The notes below the pieces were generated by a model. It had not been told where the DNA came from, did no database searches, and saw only the letters and a program-made list of their open reading frames with translations. Below are positions 2,086 through 14,327 of a stretch of 44,267 nucleotides of DNA, piece after piece. The stretch is from an uncultured Candidatus Micrarchaeota archaeon. Lineage in GTDB: Archaea; Micrarchaeota; Micrarchaeia; Anstonellales; Anstonellaceae. How positions within the stretch are numbered: position 1 is the first letter of the stretch; the number at the start of each line of letters is the position of its first letter. The stretch is from the NCBI GenBank assembly GCA_903892905.1, contig CAITKI010000113.1, positions 1 through 44,267 of the forward strand, in the 5' to 3' direction. The translations under genes and the position numbers were made by a program.

Positions 2086-2518
2086 TGCACTTTCTCCGAA
2101 ATCATGCGAAGCGCGCAAAAGCGCGATACGGCACGTATTCCATCGAAAAGATTTGCCTGCTCAAGCCGGCATGGGCCGGTTGTTCAGCGGCTGCTCGCCG
2201 CCCCCAAACGCGCGAATGCGCGAGGGAAATGAGCGTGAAATCCTTATGATGCCAGCCCGCGCAAGCGCGGGCAATGATGTTCCTTCTTCTTTGTTTGAAA
2301 CCGGAAACCTGCGTTCCCGGAGCGTTAATATCACTGTTTTTTGTGTGCGGCGCGCTGTTGACAGGCAATTCACAGCGGTGAGCTCCTTCTGCCATCCACG
2401 CGCAGCACTCCCTATATGGTTTTGGGGGTATATAAAGCCCGCACCCAAGAGGGCGCATTTGGGCGCTTTTGCCCTGCCAGAAAGGCAGGATTTTATCCCT
2501 TCCCCCCAATATACTATT

Positions 2519-4516
2519 ATGCGCAGGCTGGTGGGAGCCATCGCGCTTCTTTTCATCGCCTTCCTTCTCGTTTTGTTCATCCCTCTCCCTGCAATCCCTT
2601 CCCAGCTGGCGCAGGAAAGCGCAAGCGCGAAGCTGGGATTTGGCATAAAATCAGCCGAAATTGCAGATTCTGATGGCTCTGGGGTGGCGCTGCTGCGGCT
2701 GTACCTTGTTTCTGACGGCGCGCGCAACCTGTCTGCCTTCTGTTCCTCTCGCCCCCTCCAAAACAACATCTTGCTGCTCTCCTTTCCCTCTGCGCCTGGC
2801 GTGGATGAGAGCCTTCCTGTGAAAATATCTGCAGCGCTGATGAAAAGCGGGCTTTCCTCCCGCGCTGCTTCCATTGCGGATGCGCTCTCTTCGGAAAACA
2901 CGCTCATAATCGCTTCCACAGGTGCAATTCCCATTCCCCTTCTTCAAAACGCTTCGGCACTTGAGCACCAAAACACCCGCGTGATAGTGCTTGAGGCGCT
3001 TTCAGGCAAAACAATAGACGAAAACGGCAATCTCGCGCAGCTGAACACCAGCCTTCCGAAAAACTTCGTGCTAGTGCATCTTTCTCCCTCTAACGAGGAA
3101 AGCGCAGTGGCAGAGGTGGCAAGGCGCGCGATTTTCCTTCCAGGCCTAGAAAGCGTGCGCGCGTCTTACTTGCCGGGCAACATAACGCTTGTGGTGCCCC
3201 TGAACGAAAGCTCTGCCTATTGCCGTGCAGTGTGCGAGGCTGGCGGAGGCAGGTACAGGTTTTCCGACAGCGGGCTGCTCTCTGCCTCTCCTGGCACGCT
3301 GATGGGGCCTGCAAGGCTTGCAGCAGGGCAAGACGGCATTTACGAATTTTCACTGCCTAATGGGGAAGAAGTGGGAAGGAACCTCAAATTTTTTGCACTG
3401 GCTATTCTTCCTGAAGGCGAGTCATTCAGGCGCGAAATTGCAGGCGGCGAGATAAAGCAAGGCTGGGCAAGCAGGTTCCAGCTGAACTTTTCGCGCGGGG
3501 GCAAGTATGCTGTGCGCGTGATAGACCAGTTTGGCAGGGTGCATGCGTCCGCCTTTGTTTCAGTGCCCGCGCTTTCAGTCACTCCTGTCTCATTCGAAGG
3601 CAGCAGGTACGAATTCCTGGCGCTTCTTGATGGCGTTCCTGTGGAAGGTGCAATATCTGCCCGGCTTGACAACGGCTCTCCAAAAAACTATTCAGTGCAT
3701 GAGGGAAAGCTTGTAATCTGGTCTGCCCCTTCTTCCGGGAATCACACTTTCGGGTTTGAGTTTTCAGGCTCGCGAGCGGATTACCAATTCATCTCCTCCC
3801 CATCTGGCATGGGCGCGCTTATTGACACCTACCTGCGCTTTGGCGTGCCTGCTGCAATCTTTGTGCTTGCGGTCTTCCTATTGCTTCGCGCAGGAAGGCG
3901 CGCGAAATATTCCATCACATTTCCCGAAGTCGCGCTTTTTGACCCTGACGTGGTGAACGTAAGCGCCGAAGAGGTCGTCTCAGCCTACACCCGCGCAGAC
4001 AGGAAGTTCGGGGGCTTTTCCCTGCCATGCTACCCATCGGAAATCGCAGATGGGCTTTTGCAGGAAAAAAACAGGCGTAATGCAATGCCCATAAACGCGC
4101 ACAGTGTGCTTCGCATCCTGCGCAAGCTATCAGCGCAAGGCGTTTTTGCAGAGCATGAAGGTGCATTCATCCCAACTTCCAAGATGGGCGGGTTTTCCGC
4201 GCAAGAGCTTCACATGCTTCGCATTATGCACGAATGCATGCTTGAGCAAGGACTGCGCTTTTCCAGGAAGCCGATTATCACTGTGAAGAAAGGCGAGCTT
4301 GAGCTTGCGCTTTTCAGGGGCAAGAAATCCCTTCTGTCCGGCATTGGGAAGGCATGCCGAGCAGTGGTGTTTGAAAGCAAGGAGGCGCTTGAGAAATTCC
4401 AGGAAGAGCTTGCGGTCCCTGGCTTTGAAAACAACAGGATACGCCTTGCGCTGGGCAACGATTTGCTTGTTTTCGTGGTTGCAAGCAGGGGCTCGCTCGG
4501 TGGCATTCTGCCTTAG
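2519..4516 (+). CDS. Hypothetical membrane protein (N-terminal signal/TM, extracellular beta-rich region, second TM, cytoplasmic tail)
   Basis: Start at MRRLVGAIALLFIAFLLVLF; internal TM FGVPAAIFVLAVFLLL; the upstream ORF extension to 1745 overlaps DUF167 and was discarded. Confidence 0.75.
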   Translation: MRRLVGAIALLFIAFLLVLFIPLPAIPSQLAQESASAKLGFGIKSAEIADSDGSGVALLRLYLVSDGARNLSAFCSSRPLQNNILLLSFPSAPGVDESLPVKISAALMKSGLSSRAASIADALSSENTLIIASTGAIPIPLLQNASALEHQNTRVIVLEALSGKTIDENGNLAQLNTSLPKNFVLVHLSPSNEESAVAEVARRAIFLPGLESVRASYLPGNITLVVPLNESSAYCRAVCEAGGGRYRFSDSGLLSASPGTLMGPARLAAGQDGIYEFSLPNGEEVGRNLKFFALAILPEGESFRREIAGGEIKQGWASRFQLNFSRGGKYAVRVIDQFGRVHASAFVSVPALSVTPVSFEGSRYEFLALLDGVPVEGAISARLDNGSPKNYSVHEGKLVIWSAPSSGNHTFGFEFSGSRADYQFISSPSGMGALIDTYLRFGVPAAIFVLAVFLLLRAGRRAKYSITFPEVALFDPDVVNVSAEEVVSAYTRADRKFGGFSLPCYPSEIADGLLQEKNRRNAMPINAHSVLRILRKLSAQGVFAEHEGAFIPTSKMGGFSAQELHMLRIMHECMLEQGLRFSRKPIITVKKGELELALFRGKKSLLSGIGKACRAVVFESKEALEKFQEELAVPGFENNRIRLALGNDLLVFVVASRGSLGGILP

Positions 4517-9896: not shown

Positions 9897-10586
9897 ATGG
9901 CATTGATTATGAAGGATGGAAAGGAAATGCGCGTGCCCGGAAGGGCAATTCCTGCGGAAAAGTGCAGGCCGGAACGGGTTCATTTTCCGGAAATGCACTG
10001 CTATGTGGATTTCGGACCAGTCCGTATGCTCGATGCAATGAGCTTCAGTGAATTTAGGAAAGAGCGCACGGTAGCTCAGATTCAAGCACTGGTGGAAGCC
10101 AGGCAGGCAAAAGCGCTTGTAGCGGAGGATACCGGCGATCTAAAGACGGCTTACCTTCTCGTGGTAAAATCTGCGCGGAGCCTAGAGGATGTTTGCAAGG
10201 AGATGATTGCAATACGCCGCAAAGAACACGAAGATTTTGTCAAGTACCATGCAGGCGGCTTTCACATGTTTAACTTCGGAGATATTCATTATAAAATTCT
10301 TCAGGCGTGGGATGCGGCATACGACTACGCAACAAGCCCAGAAGACAAAGCAATGTGTGCTGAAAAAAAAGGGTTCTTCGACCGCTTATGGGTGATTTCC
10401 GGCATTCTGGAAGACACTCGCGTCTCCATCACCCGTAAATCCATGAGCGATGCCGAAAAAATCGAGCTGCTGCGGATGCTTGTGCGCATGAGCGAGATAG
10501 TCGGGCCGGAGTTTTCGACCTACTCGGAGTTCGATGTCAAGGGTGTCAAATCGGAAATTGCCGAGTTGGAAGGGCTCTCGAAGTAG
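9897..10586 (+). CDS. Hypothetical helical protein
   Basis: Strong SD GGAGGTG at 9883-9889 before ATG 9897; 229 aa ORF with no recognisable motif. Confidence 0.7.
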   Translation: MALIMKDGKEMRVPGRAIPAEKCRPERVHFPEMHCYVDFGPVRMLDAMSFSEFRKERTVAQIQALVEARQAKALVAEDTGDLKTAYLLVVKSARSLEDVCKEMIAIRRKEHEDFVKYHAGGFHMFNFGDIHYKILQAWDAAYDYATSPEDKAMCAEKKGFFDRLWVISGILEDTRVSITRKSMSDAEKIELLRMLVRMSEIVGPEFSTYSEFDVKGVKSEIAELEGLSK

Positions 10587-10618
10587 CTAATGCGCTGAAA
10601 AATTGGAGGTTGATTGAT

Positions 10619-11446
10619 ATGATGCAAAAAACCATTGCAACTGGCGGAAAATCCCTGCCCGTCAAGGCATTCATAGAAAAAAACAGCCTTGGCAGCTGGA
10701 GCAAGTTCAGGTCAATGTCCATCAAAGACCAGAACGAAATAATGCTGGGTGCCAAGTGCTACAAGAAGCTTGGGGAAAGAGTGCATGATTACTTGCATGA
10801 AAATCTGGGCGCAGAAGAGGCAAAAGAACTATACTCTCCTGCGAGCCGCCTCAGAAGCATAGTCCACCTTACCAATAAGAAGGCCCTCAAGACTTTTTGG
10901 GATAACAACAAAAAGGAATTTGCCGCCGCAATAAGGTGCGTTTCTGCAAGTGACAGGCTTAGAATAAGCGAATCCATTGCCATCGCCACTGGAAGAAAAA
11001 ATGCCGCATCTGCAGCCCGGTCTAAATTGGACGGCATGATCCTAAATGACGGCCTGGACCGGCTTGTAAAAAGACACGAGAACGCAGAAAATCGCGAAGG
11101 CCGCCGGTGGGGAGATGCTGTGAACAAACTGGCAGCGCAAGAAAGGCCAGTGGATTTGAGCCGGCATGTGGGAGTAATCGATATAATCTTCGAGGCGAGC
11201 CAATGCATGCTAGGTGAAATAAAAGAACACAATAATGAGCGCGTGTCACACGTGTACTTTGTGGGCGTTTTTAATGCAGATGCATGGTATCTTGCGAAGA
11301 AGATTAACGATGTGATCAGGGCACTCAAGAATATCAAAACATCTGGGAACGCATTGCCTGAAAAGACAAAAAATCAAATAAATGGATGGGTGCGTGAGTT
11401 GTCAGATATGCCCATACGCTCATACACTGTCCGTTATGGGATTTAA
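10619..11446 (+). CDS. Hypothetical basic protein
   Basis: SD GGAGGT before ATG 10619; no recognisable motif. Confidence 0.7.
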   Translation: MMQKTIATGGKSLPVKAFIEKNSLGSWSKFRSMSIKDQNEIMLGAKCYKKLGERVHDYLHENLGAEEAKELYSPASRLRSIVHLTNKKALKTFWDNNKKEFAAAIRCVSASDRLRISESIAIATGRKNAASAARSKLDGMILNDGLDRLVKRHENAENREGRRWGDAVNKLAAQERPVDLSRHVGVIDIIFEASQCMLGEIKEHNNERVSHVYFVGVFNADAWYLAKKINDVIRALKNIKTSGNALPEKTKNQINGWVRELSDMPIRSYTVRYGI

Positions 11447-11495
11447 ATTGGCAAACTGCCAAGAAATAGCAAAACCGTTCCCTCTTTTTCTTTTT

Positions 11496-12122
11496 TCAAT
11501 CCTTCTTTATCGGCAGCGGGGACGAATAGGGCGCGAGGAGCTTGGCAGCCTGGTTGAGCGCGGCTGAGACGTCTGCCTCGCTTCTCCCTCCCGTGCAGAT
11601 TATCTTGCCGTTCTTGAAGAGAAGCAGCGATGTCTTGGGCACAAGGAACTTCAGGATGGCGCCTGGGAACTGCTCAGGCTCGTATTCCACGTCTGGCACT
11701 TCGGACGCAATCCCGTAAAGGTCAAGCTCCACGCCAAGCGCGGCGGATGCCACGATGTTCTGGATGACGAATTTGGGCTTGAAGTTCTTCGGAGGCGTGA
11801 TTTTCGAGTATTTCTCGAGCATCTTCATGGTGAGCGCAATGGCGTCCGTGACCTCTTTCTCGTTCTTCCCGCCTGCGCAGATGATTTTCCCGTTCTTGAA
11901 AAGCAAAAGCGAGGTTTTCGGGTCTTTCAGCTTCAATATGGCGCCCGGGAACTGCTCAGGCTCGTATTCCACGTCATGAAGCTTGTAGGCAATGGTGTAA
12001 AGGTCAAGCTCAAGGCCCAGCTCGGAAGAGGCGACGATGTTCTCGATCTTGAAAGTAGGTTTTATGGCTATCTGGGGCATGCTGCCTTTCTTAAATTTCT
12101 TTTTGCTTTTGCTCTTTTTCAT
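11496..12122 (-). CDS. tbp: TATA-box binding protein
   Basis: Two TBP repeats (ENIVAS...EYEPEQFPG...LLFKNGKIIC and QNIVAS...EYEPEQFPG...LLFKNGKIIC); native start placed at 12122 from the reconstructed pre-insertion promoter spacing. Confidence 0.96.
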   Translation of the reverse strand: MKKSKSKKKFKKGSMPQIAIKPTFKIENIVASSELGLELDLYTIAYKLHDVEYEPEQFPGAILKLKDPKTSLLLFKNGKIICAGGKNEKEVTDAIALTMKMLEKYSKITPPKNFKPKFVIQNIVASAALGVELDLYGIASEVPDVEYEPEQFPGAILKFLVPKTSLLLFKNGKIICTGGRSEADVSAALNQAAKLLAPYSSPLPIKKD

Positions 12123-13454
12123 AAAACCCCTCGCAAGGAAACCCACAATTTCAATCGTGGGAGGAATTGCGCTCTCCATATTCTTGAATACATCCCCGAA
12201 CCATCTCTTTTGAATGGAATCTGGTTGTTCCGAAACCCTGAATGTTCTGTTGCAGTTTCTGGAAATTTCACCGGCATCCTACCGTCTGCAAGCCTTTTTA
12301 TAGCCGCAAAATCCTTAATAAAGACATGCTGAAGACCATCCCAACGGCCATCGAGGAATTGCCCGGGCAGCGCGCCATGCTTGATGATACATTGTCTTCC
12401 ATGTCTGACGCCATGAACTTTGCCGTTTCCTCCTGTTATGAACATGAGGAAACCAACGCCTTCCGGATGCACCATTTCAATTATTCTGCCCTTCGCAGAA
12501 AATTTAGCCTTCCTGCCCAGCTTGCAGTTGTTGCCAACAAGTATGCCTGTTCTTCCGTGAAGGAGGCAATCAAAAGAAAAGCCCCAAGACCAAAGTTTTC
12601 CGGCAAGTCTATCCATTACGATGCAAGGAGTAGCAAGATAGACCTCGTGAAGAAAACCGCAAGCCTCCTTACAAAAAACGGGAGGCTCAAGATGAAGCTC
12701 AACGTTCCTGAATATTTCCGGAAGTTTTCCGATTGGAAGGTCAAGGAAAGCAATCTTGTCAAGTGCAGAGATGGGAAGTTCAGGCTGATGATTGCTATTG
12801 AACGCCCAACCATCAAATCCAATGGCACTGGTAAGGTCATTGGGGTGGACCGAGGCATCAACAACATTATCGCCACTTCGGAAGGATGGCTTTACGAAGG
12901 GCACGATGTTTTTTCCAGAAAGCAAAGGTATGTTCTGTTGAGGGCAGGGTTGCAAAGCAAAGGCACTCGCTCCGCCAAAAGGCATCTTGTAAGGATGCGT
13001 GGCAGGGAGAAACGTTTTATGCGGGATGTCAACCACTGCATAAGCAGGGCTTTGATAAGCACTGCAGGACTGAATGGGGTCCTGGTTTTGGAGAACTTGA
13101 AGGGGATAAGAGCCGCAAGGCATCGGCACGAGCAGAACTGGCTCTTTTCCAACTGGGCTTTTTACCAGTTGGAAAGCTTCCTCGCATACAAAGGAGAAGA
13201 AACAGGAGTTGCTGTGAAGTTCGTTCCCGCGAGGGACACTTCCCGTGCCTGTTCCATATGCGGCAGCTTGAAAAGAGGGCAGAGACAAGGCTCTGTCTTC
13301 AAGTGCAAAACATGCGGCGTGATTCTCCACGCCGATTTGAACGCTGCCAAGAACATCCTGCACAGATACACTTCCATCAGCGGGCTGCAGTCAATCTGCC
13401 CATTGCTCCCGACCGGGTCGAGCAAGCCCACGTTTTTAACCGTGAGTAATTGAC
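12123..13454 (+). mobile_element. IS200/IS605-family non-autonomous (tnpB-only) insertion sequence
   Basis: Left-end hairpin CCCACaatttcaatcGTGGG (12142-12161) just after a TTCAT motif; related right-end hairpin gCCCACGtttttaacCGTGAG followed by TTGAC ending at 13454; no tnpA seen; no target duplication. Confidence 0.85.
12326..13453 (+). CDS. tnpB: TnpB RNA-guided endonuclease
   Basis: RuvC-I VIGVDRG, RuvC-II VLENL, zinc ribbon CSIC...CKTC, RuvC-III HADLNAAKNI; catalytic D/E/D intact; TATA TTTTTATA at 12295-12302. Confidence 0.95.
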   Translation: MLKTIPTAIEELPGQRAMLDDTLSSMSDAMNFAVSSCYEHEETNAFRMHHFNYSALRRKFSLPAQLAVVANKYACSSVKEAIKRKAPRPKFSGKSIHYDARSSKIDLVKKTASLLTKNGRLKMKLNVPEYFRKFSDWKVKESNLVKCRDGKFRLMIAIERPTIKSNGTGKVIGVDRGINNIIATSEGWLYEGHDVFSRKQRYVLLRAGLQSKGTRSAKRHLVRMRGREKRFMRDVNHCISRALISTAGLNGVLVLENLKGIRAARHRHEQNWLFSNWAFYQLESFLAYKGEETGVAVKFVPARDTSRACSICGSLKRGQRQGSVFKCKTCGVILHADLNAAKNILHRYTSISGLQSICPLLPTGSSKPTFLTVSN

Positions 13455-13470
13455 ATAGAACCAGCCCCAT
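13300..13470 (+). ncRNA. Putative omegaRNA (reRNA) scaffold plus flanking guide
   Basis: TnpB omegaRNAs overlap the tnpB 3' end and right end, with the guide just beyond it. Stems are visible (GGGCtG..CtGCCC at 13382-13402 and the right-end hairpin). Guide would be ATAGAACCAGCCCCAT (13455-13470). The 5' boundary is a guess. Confidence 0.6.
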
Positions 13471-13477
13471 ACAAACA

Positions 13478-13520
13478 TTTTTAAACCGTCTGAGATATTT
13501 AAAAGGGCAAGGTATTTAAA
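13478..13520. promoter_or_regulatory. Divergent TATA boxes (original tbp promoter and rpl21e operon promoter)
   Basis: TTTTTAAA 13478-13485, TATTTAAAA 13496-13504, TATTTAAA 13513-13520. Confidence 0.6.
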
Positions 13521-13586
13521 CTAGACGCAGGGTAATCATCCCCTGGCTGCGGTTCTCGCTGCCAAACGCTATTAAGGTGATGAAAA

Positions 13587-13871
13587 ATGAGACGCTCACT
13601 TGGAAAAATGTCAAAAAGAAGCCGCGCACTTGGCCAGTCCAAGCGCAAGCTCACGATCCCCGGGCTGATAAGCGGGTATTCCATCGGCGACTGCGTGGCT
13701 ATTGACCATCAGTCAAAGTACTCAGGCATGCCGCACCCGCGCTACCGCGGAAGGACAGGCACCATTGTCGCGCAGCGCGGCAAGTCATACGTCGTTGAAA
13801 TAAGCGACATGAATGCCACGAAGCAGCTTATCATCCCCCCGGTGCACCTCAAGGCAGTGGGGAAGAAATAA
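13587..13871 (+). CDS. rpl21e: 50S ribosomal protein L21e
   Basis: GMPHPRYRGRTGTIV and IIPPVHLK motifs; SD AGGTGA; canonical position before rpoF. Confidence 0.95.
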   Translation: MRRSLGKMSKRSRALGQSKRKLTIPGLISGYSIGDCVAIDHQSKYSGMPHPRYRGRTGTIVAQRGKSYVVEISDMNATKQLIIPPVHLKAVGKK

Positions 13872-13883
13872 ACGGTGGTCCAC

Positions 13884-14327
13884 ATGATAGGAAAAGGCGC
13901 AAACGAAATCCGCCCGGCATTGCTCGCCGAGGTGGAAAAGATACTCGACAAGAGGCAGGGCACGGCCGGCGAGTTCGGCTTCGAGCAGCAGACCACCCTT
14001 GAATACGCCAAGCGCTTTTCCCACCTGAAGTACAACGACGCCAAGGAGATGCTCGACGAGCTCGAGAAGCTCGAGGTGAAGACCGAGACCGCGGTGAAAA
14101 TCGTGGACCTGCTCCCGAAGAACAAGAGCCAGCTCATGCTCATCCTTGTTAAAGACAAAGTGGAGCTTCCAGAGAAGAAAATGGAGAAGGTGGAAGCGCT
14201 CATTGCGGAATACTCGAAAAAGGCAAAGAAATTCGAGCCCAAAGTAGAGGCACTGCCCGATGCGCCCGCGGCCGCGCCAGCAGAGGCGCCAGTCGAGGAA
14301 GCGAAGGAAAAGAAGAAATCCGACTGA
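13884..14327 (+). CDS. rpoF: RNA polymerase subunit F (Rpo4)
   Basis: FEQQTTLEYAKRF and AVKIVDLLP motifs; synteny rpl21e-rpoF-DUF655. Confidence 0.9.
   Translation: MIGKGANEIRPALLAEVEKILDKRQGTAGEFGFEQQTTLEYAKRFSHLKYNDAKEMLDELEKLEVKTETAVKIVDLLPKNKSQLMLILVKDKVELPEKKMEKVEALIAEYSKKAKKFEPKVEALPDAPAAAPAEAPVEEAKEKKKSD

Follow-up and report, generated by a model that had tools for sequence, protein, structure and literature searches.

A TnpB element between the start codon and the TATA box of an archaeal tbp gene, and the docking of its family on start codons

The element lies exactly between the tbp start codon and its TATA box

How does an apparently essential gene survive when a transposon cuts it off from its promoter? 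The question is raised by an uncultured Candidatus Micrarchaeota archaeon in which a TnpB element sits directly in front of the gene for the TATA-binding protein (tbp). The window, i.e., the whole stretch of 44,267 nucleotides (nt) analysed here, is the entire contig C113 of the source assembly G000 (1.33 Mb, 154 contigs, 87.8% complete). Its tbp gene (11496..12122, minus strand, ATG at 12122-12120) encodes 208 amino acids (aa) with the two repeats of PF00352 (E 5.4e-54); NCBIfam TBP models match the product too, but under their curated cut-offs. The divergent neighbour of tbp is rpl21e (13587..13871, plus strand, PF01157), and the two genes are divergent neighbours in 29 of 29 relatives' loci. 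Between them lies an IS200/IS605-type TnpB element devoid of tnpA (12123..13454, plus strand). It begins directly after the motif TTCAT (12118..12122, plus strand), whose CAT (12120-12122) is the tbp start codon on the opposite strand, and the displaced TATA box of tbp (TTTAAAAA on the minus strand, 13478..13485) now stands 1355 nt from the ATG.

A preliminary description of this DNA had placed the element exactly between ATG and TATA box, with its left end directly after TTCAT, and had predicted that deletion of 12123-13454 would restore a TATA box 23 nt before the ATG, as expected of an element that inserts 3' of a short motif with no target duplication. Here, we compared the occupied site with the tbp-rpl21e spacer in 11 relatives' loci (L009-L019), out of 29 with divergent tbp and rpl21e. 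The window minus 12123-13454 reads ...GCTCTTTTTCAT|ATAGAACCAGCCCCATACAAACATTTTTAAACCG, and the five closest relatives of the same genus (L009-L013, with TBP 95-98% identical to that of the window) carry the empty junction ...CTCTTTTTCAT|ATAGAACCAGCCCCATACAAACATTTTTAAACCG, in which 12122 is joined to 13455; the agreement is to the base. In this empty form, TTCAT occurs once and the TATA box (TTTTTAAA on the plus strand, 13478-13485) lies 23 nt from the tbp ATG, occupying positions -31 to -24. One base differs at the junction of L014, and the diverged L015-L019 retain a TTTTTAAA or TTTATAAA box 15-46 nt from starts estimated by tblastn offsets. The insert is 12123-13454, 1332 bp, with no target duplication, and its boundary is ambiguous by 1 nt because 12123 and 13455 are both A. 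The coordinates proposed earlier are correct, as are the restored promoter and the mode of insertion. The element separates the leaderless tbp gene from its TATA box by 1332 bp.

Both junctions are bridged with 0 differences by contigs of sequencing runs X1, X5 and X6, which come from three studies, and the insertion recurs in L082, a metagenome contig of independent origin; an assembly artefact is thereby ruled out. Bridging was checked on Logan contigs of the runs. The suggestion that the empty junction might be recovered from sequencing data was borne out in part: the junction is present in X5 and X6, but on contigs of variant strains, whose tbp N-terminal codons are unlike those of the window. 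On the window's own haplotype, the empty allele was not seen in the contigs of X1 and X3, which drop rare variants and are uninformative on rare excision.

A second tbp gene, which the preliminary description had proposed to look for, was not found in the 87.8% complete G000, where the sole PF00352 hits are the two repeats of the gene at 11496-12122. Across 40 relatives, there is one tbp match per genome in 34, two in five and none in one; those double matches that were inspected lie back to back or end to end at a single place, like one gene hit in two pieces. The tbp genes of the window and of L082 differ at 22 of 627 nt and in only 2 residues. To judge by these substitutions, tbp is under purifying selection in both occupied lineages.

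TnpB genes were seen near tbp in other genomes as well. One of them, from a different genus of the order, holds an unrelated canonical TnpB of 442 aa (L044, positions 1250-2763, G040:C2) that stops about 45 nt short of the TATA boxes in the tbp promoter region, its right end and presumed guide abutting tbp/rpl21e promoter DNA; the tbp gene of this locus has a GGTGAT Shine-Dalgarno (SD) motif. Contig C19 of G034 likewise has a TnpB near tbp.

Anatomy of the element and its place in the IS200/IS605 family

Since the element DNA is single-copy in G000, its ends were defined from relatives in other genomes. Genome scans for TnpB relatives yielded 18 loci and metagenome scans 53; ends were analysed in the 38 loci with TnpB identity of at least 59%, plus the window, while loci below that identity (L071-L078, L080, L081, L110, L111, L113-L122, L124-L134) lie outside the end analysis. 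Duplicates were dropped from the counts, namely L082 (the window's own site), L086 (the same as L064), L099 (as L098) and L123 (as L079). The contig stops before the left end in five loci and before the right end in four.

From left to right, the element comprises a hairpin at the left end, the remnant of a tnpA gene, a TATA box, tnpB, a presumed omegaRNA scaffold and the right end. The subterminal hairpin of the left end (12132..12171, plus strand), seen in the DNA fold and in the family alignment, has an inner stem of 12142-12146/12157-12161, a loop at 12147-12156 and an outer stem of 12132-12136/12167-12171; compensatory changes occur in 8 of 9 inner-stem pairs among 30 sequences. A putative degenerate 3' remnant of a Y1 tnpA (12160..12231, minus strand) was picked up by tblastn with the TnpA of the relative L079 (25 residues, 48% identity), and at the DNA level 12129-12231 is 63.6% identical to L079. 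A TATA box (TTTTTATA, 12295..12302), which may fire both ways, stands 23 nt before the ATG of tnpB. The latter is an intact open reading frame (ORF) of 375 aa (12326..13453, plus strand) that matches PF07282 and PF01385, carries the zinc-finger/TNB domain, and scores 168.5 bits on NF040570 guided_TnpB (cut-off 100). Its RuvC D, E and D positions, which we take to be the catalytic residues, align with those of solved TnpB/Cas12f chains, and in the alignment GVDRG, LENL and HADLNAA pair with their counterparts in 8j3r_A.

The last ~70 nt of the element form a fold of 23 pairs, 13 of them with compensatory changes (RNAalifold, 29 sequences), as expected of an omegaRNA scaffold. The structured 3' part of the presumed scaffold together with the right end covers 13384..13454 (plus strand) and finishes in TTGAC. 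An Rfam scan of 11400-14000 with E up to 1 gave no match; the basis for this call is covariation. Two kinds of extra DNA were noticed in relatives. A 93%-identical element (L084, 3580-3682) carries about 80 extra nt of stem-loops in the last omegaRNA stem, and, like the window, it shows a TATA-like box in the right flank, at ~22 nt from the junction. A hairpin-rich insert of ~150-180 nt with long inverted repeats, resembling a miniature inverted-repeat transposable element, is nested in L102 (~2900-3100) and L104 (~1230-1460); it interrupts the omegaRNA region in one and the region from the left end to tnpB in the other.

In L079, a Y1 transposase (PF01797 Y1_Tnp, E 1.6e-39) lies between the left end and tnpB, and the family is therefore placed in IS200/IS605; L064 is of the same type minus ~260 nt of tnpA. 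A Y1 TnpA (PF01797) has no match in the 87.8% complete G000, and with only the weak remnant in the window, the copy studied here is non-autonomous. The sole relative with an intact Y1 tnpA, L079, has an internally deleted tnpB (2501-3157, a 248-aa ORF matching query residues 1-103 and 257-353), and no copy with both genes intact was seen among the relatives. Other TnpBs of G000 are 27-30% identical to that of the element and have the canonical type of N-terminus. Elements 99.2-99.9% identical to one another occupy three unrelated sites (L094, L095, L107), so the family has moved recently. With a Y1 TnpA in the autonomous relative, insertion 3' of a motif with no duplication and no terminal inverted repeats, hairpins at both ends, and a guided TnpB with its triad and TNB domain, the element belongs, in every feature testable here, to IS200/IS605 and to the guided-TnpB family. 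An IS607-type element was also considered; the Y1 TnpA of L079 and a score of 49.8 bits on NF038280 (cut-off 350) argue against it, although no serine-recombinase search was made.

The family docks on start codons of many host genes

The preliminary description had proposed TTCAT as the transposon-adjacent motif (TAM), with the right flank as guide, and had asked whether other copies follow a 5' TTCAT. All 30 non-redundant junctions have TCAT before the left end, extended by a further T to the full TTCAT in 19 of them; the others have A (6), C (3) or G (2) at this place. TTGAC closes 30 of the 31 right ends and TTGAT the remaining one. Taken together with the covarying fold at the right end, these counts support the proposal, the motif being TCAT throughout and TTCAT in most copies. 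The left-end core (12130-12172) was also found behind two other flanks, ending ...TTTCAT and ...GTTCAT, on loose contigs of X1 and X3; the source community therefore harbours additional related copies that share this TAM.

TCAT is the complement of ATGA, and what the element captures is in most cases the start of a gene. In 22 of 29 junctions, an ORF that reaches 100 aa or more, or that runs off the contig, begins at the captured ATG, whereas this holds for 24.1% of the 10,213 ATGA sites in G000 (P 6.6e-9, with insertion events treated as independent and a crude gene model, as in all docking tests here). An in-frame stop no more than 26 codons upstream is present as well in 17 of the 25 junctions with both flanks, against a background of 5.2%. 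Among the captured hosts are tbp, kae1 (twice), gatE, gapdh and map, and the two kae1 genes were captured by different elements in different lineages (L087, L108).

By Pfam alignment, the N-termini of the host protein families fall at the captured ATGs. Given as protein residue/profile position, they begin at 1/1 for NUDIX, 2/2 for GatB_N, 1/1 for Gp_dh_N, 3/1 for Peptidase_M24, 3/1 for Epimerase, 1/1 for RmlD and 3/3 for DUF6390; later starts are those of TsaD (28/10 and 25/8) and Epimerase_2 (29/10). The host gene of L079 encodes a P-loop kinase/dCMP deaminase. For the epimerase captured in L064, seven relatives' epimerases begin at the same ATG; a second exact empty site was sought there and not found, as the relatives share the start codon and not the upstream neighbourhood. 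Two junctions are at small ORFs, one Sec61beta-like and below the Pfam cut-off (L084), the other a 47-aa zinc-ribbon ORF (L095). This Micrarchaeota element family docks on the start codons (ATGA) of many host genes.

The left end may supply expression signals to the captured gene

Directly inside its left end, the element carries an SD-like motif that faces the host gene. In the window, this is GAGGGG (12127..12132, minus strand), with the GAGG core 6 nt before the tbp ATG and TTTT following. An SD match of at least 4 nt, placed 2-8 nt before the captured ATG on the host strand, is present in 25 of 29 copies, and one of at least 5 nt in 13 of 29; for comparison, native start-like ATGs reach 41% and 17% (n=840) and random 20-mers 27% and 6.8%, all scored against a 10-nt SD consensus. 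The motif lies within the ~12 nt at the tip of the left end, which vary between copies, and it slides along the SD register from one copy to the next, with the variants GAGGGG, GAGGTGA, GGAGGTG, AGGTGAT and GGTGATC. As the 16S gene of G000 runs off its contig before the 3' end, k-mer enrichment before native starts was used as a proxy for the anti-SD sequence: GAGGT is enriched 5.0-fold and AGGTG 4.4-fold upstream, with a spacing of mostly 4-7 nt. The 16S gene itself leaves the contig at model position 1343 of 1478, and its match (G000:C88:31616-33714; L135/L136) is split at model positions 828/863 by ~700 nt, possibly an intron.

A source of transcripts is suggested by the autonomous form. 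In L079, tnpA ends inside the left-end hairpin: its stop codon is part of the loop and stands 28 nt away from the captured ATG. The tnpA mRNA thus has to extend to the host gene, which is effectively a second cistron behind tnpA. A palindromic TATA box (CTTATAAG) stands 22 nt from both the tnpA ATG and the tnpB ATG of this copy, and most of the 30 copies tabulated carry a T/A-rich box that precedes the tnpB ATG by 22-25 nt. For the window, we propose that tbp would be transcribed leftward from the TATA box at 12295-12302, once shared by divergent tnpA and tnpB, and that a leader of ~150 nt would pass through the tnpA remnant and the left end. Translation would then use the SD-like motif of the left end and initiate at 12122, so that a leaderless gene would become a leadered one. 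The survival of an apparently essential gene cut from its promoter seems to be explained, family-wide, by the left end of the element.

The junction has a further geometric property. Because the target is the complement of ATGA, an upstream frame of the fitting phase ends on the captured start, in a termination-reinitiation geometry; in the window, a 52-codon minus-strand ORF (12119-12277) crosses the tnpA remnant and the left end, and its TGA overlaps the tbp ATG. We considered this ORF as a translational-coupling device but set it aside, since ATGA ends any such frame anyway.

TAM, presumed guide and the proposed lock

By the established rule for TnpB, the TAM equals the target motif and the right flank serves as the guide; the mechanism was reportedly described by Karvelis in 2021 and Meers in 2023. 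Applied to the window, the rule gives a presumed guide template at 13455..13470 (plus strand), which directly follows the right end, equals the target in the empty site, and formerly made up positions -1 to -16 of the tbp promoter. The first 37 nt past the junction are identical in L009-L013. The presumed guide 16-mer occurs only once in G000, where TTGAC and not a TAM stands before it, so the occupied site is not a target. TTCAT itself is known as a TAM, namely that of the IscB of ISGst5 (10.1101/2023.03.14.532601).

With the right flank used as guide, as we infer, TnpB and its omegaRNA would cut TTCAT followed by ATAGAACCAGCCCCAT, i.e., the empty site. The preliminary description had seen in this a lock that holds the element in front of tbp, with any restored empty site being cleaved. 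Such a lock is plausible, going by the analogy with known TnpB systems.

Age and spread of the insertion

The window and L082 are mutually closest, with 96.5% identity in tbp and 91.9% in rpl21e plus rpoF, versus 84-89% to the species with an empty site. Their elements differ at only 2 of 1332 positions (99.85% identical), within a tract of identity spanning 12061-13494, while the flanking genes differ by 3.5-8%. Another pair that shares a site, L098 and L099, shows the same tendency and has 0 differences in 1259 positions of the element, with 6/1200 and 6/693 in the flanks. This low divergence of the element fits an occupied allele that spread recently from one lineage to another, as it would by homing.

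The element is, however, not the only such tract. Window and L082 are also nearly identical over ~1 kb at 10530-11528 (2 differences), while its neighbours differ by up to ~20%: 10100-10400 differs by ~15-20% and tbp by 3.5%. The tract contains an ORF of 278 aa (10610-11446) with no Pfam match. This mosaic of divergence suggests recombination between the two lineages. We therefore did not adopt homing as the explanation of the low element divergence, given that ordinary recombination accounts equally well for it in view of the near-identical 10530-11528.

Alternative explanations of the captured tbp gene

The account that we consider probable combines a non-autonomous IS200/IS605 element on the tbp ATG, a family that docks on start codons, a takeover of tbp expression by the left end, and a TnpB that would cut the empty site. 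Several points weigh against it. The left ends are homologous, and the 29 SD counts are thus not independent; conserved GGAG and GGAGG are present on its top strand as well, where they are useless to the host gene, and SD-like strings may therefore arise otherwise; and the window's own motif is only GAGG(GG). No RNA runs are listed among the 20 sequencing runs found, and the outward promoter, SD use and the omegaRNA are thus predictions. The match to the tnpA remnant is weak (E 0.038 in a tiny search space). The lock is weakened because no Y1 TnpA was found in the 87.8% complete genome, where the excision that TnpB would counter may not occur. Finally, five of the 29 junctions (L085, L096, L103, L105, L106) are at no recognisable gene start, and the start-codon enrichment could reflect survivorship, not adaptation or targeting.

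Survivorship can be extended to a full explanation, in which insertion takes place at any TCAT, only non-disrupting copies persist, the SD-like string is a by-product of the TnpA recognition sequence, and tbp is expressed from a chance promoter or by read-through from the old one, antisense to tnpB. Conservation of the target is limited to 4-5 nt, and of 11,218 ATGA sites, 9595 are covered by ORFs, so that insertions there would be eliminated. Both strands of the left end abound in G/A and C motifs, and the old TATA box (13478-13485) is intact. Survivorship must contribute, as insertions inside genes are lost. As the whole explanation it is nevertheless unlikely: if non-coding and start-codon sites were the only ones tolerated, starts would make up 10% of them (167 vs 1456), or 27% when 533 start-like sites are counted, but 22 of 29 were observed (P 7.7e-17 and 6.0e-8, respectively). 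Moreover, promoter loss in essential genes such as tbp, kae1 (in both captures), gatE, gapdh and map should be lethal unless the promoter is replaced, and the SD-like motif lies in a variable stretch yet keeps the native spacing. A different replacement would be the loop of the left-end hairpin, which lies 25-34 nt from the captured ATG, at the usual place of the TATA box of a leaderless gene, and could stand in for it; tbp would then remain leaderless. In 16 of 30 left ends, the host strand shows, at about -33 to -25, an 8-mer in which 7 or more positions are A/T, and the native tbp box is at -31 to -24. Five of these 8-mers are fully A/T (AATAAATT twice, TTTAAATT, ATTTAAAT and TATAAATA), and the window has ATTGAAAT. 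But 14 of the 30 loops contain G/C (e.g., TGGCTGAA), no purine-rich stretch resembling a B recognition element is evident upstream (by eye), and the SD-like motif is left unexplained. We consider this reading improbable in place of ours, and treat the loop as a competing or additional signal beside the internal TATA box.

Two further readings dispense with a takeover of tbp expression. The insertion could have silenced tbp, with the organism depending on a second copy within the 12% of the genome that is missing from the assembly (87.8% complete); multiple tbp genes are known in some archaea. This has a very slight chance of being right, since G000 has one tbp, 34 of 40 relatives show one match, and the ORF is intact with its 22 nucleotide versus 2 amino acid differences between the occupied lineages. 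The chance is slighter still that TnpB is a domesticated RNA-guided regulator of the tbp/rpl21e promoter region and no part of a transposon, in the manner of the TnpB-like nuclease-dead repressors (TldR). The presumed guide does match core promoter DNA beside the right end. Lost RuvC residues and lost ends are the mark of TldR, whereas here the D/E/D positions are aligned intact and both transposon ends are in place; nearly identical elements sit at the three unrelated sites noted above (L094, L095, L107), and the target in the occupied state is preceded by TTGAC, not by a TAM.

The combined account thus remains the one that we favour for tbp. A broader version of it, covering the whole family, is offered more tentatively, as less likely than not. 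The family would be a start-codon docker whose target and TAM complement ATGA; its left end would serve as a portable 5' region that brings an outward promoter and, at native spacing, a ribosome-binding site (RBS), and would take over an often essential gene. Imprecise loss of the element would be lethal and precise loss would be countered by TnpB. The element could also home into related species, because the target of its guide is a conserved core promoter, 37 nt of which are identical in five species; homing would in turn result in the 99.85% identity of the element despite flanks that differ by 3.5-8%.

Comparison with known systems

TnpB elements are generally seen as selfish passengers that keep out of genes. 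The family described here sits on start codons, those of tbp, kae1, gatE, gapdh and map among them. If the left end does supply promoter and RBS, a transposon rewires the 5' control of core genes in an archaeal lineage, from leaderless to leadered; its retention would be tied to the essentiality of the gene, and it would represent a compact natural cassette that combines an RBS, a hairpin and a two-way TATA box. The locus is also a testable case of TnpB-mediated retention or homing at an essential promoter, and its occupied and empty alleles co-occur in the same lake communities. In the literature, searched at the level of abstracts and listings, no report was found of a family that targets start codons and has an outward RBS in its left end; the start-codon docking and the outward SD-like motif of the left end are what is new here.

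Insertion sequences with outward promoters that drive neighbouring genes are known, e.g., ISAba1 and IS10 with its pOUT. The likeness is that an element supplies expression signals to the adjacent host gene, as is proposed here. However, ISAba1 and IS10 are DDE elements with target duplications and variable distances to the gene, whereas in our case the junction is at the ATG itself and the proposed RBS is at native spacing. Homing endonuclease genes and group I introns occur in conserved essential genes, and as with them, the target of the nuclease is a conserved site of an essential gene, and the occupied allele has hardly diverged between lineages whose flanks are 3.5-8% apart. The difference is that the nuclease here is RNA-guided and the element is a transposon, for which homing between cells is only a possibility.

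A close likeness in kind is that to the IS200/IS605 TnpB elements ISDra2, IS608 and ISGst2-6, with the mechanism given by Meers et al. (10.1101/2023.03.14.532601). Shared features are the subterminal hairpins, the insertion 3' of a 4-5-nt motif with no duplication, a presumed scaffold that runs to the right end, a presumed guide in the right flank, a putative TAM equal to the target, and a Y1 TnpA in the autonomous relative. Unlike those elements, the window's copy and G000 have no tnpA, the target complements ATGA, copies sit on start codons, and the left end bears an outward-facing SD-like motif. ISGst5 of Geobacillus stearothermophilus has the same TAM, 5'-TTCAT-3', beside its left end; it differs in its effector, which is IscB, and in its bacterial host, and the passages on it make no mention of start-codon docking. 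With TldR (PMC10705468), the element shares a TnpB-type protein whose guide, here a presumed one, matches promoter DNA, but unlike TldR it has an intact RuvC triad, both of its ends and a recently mobile family.

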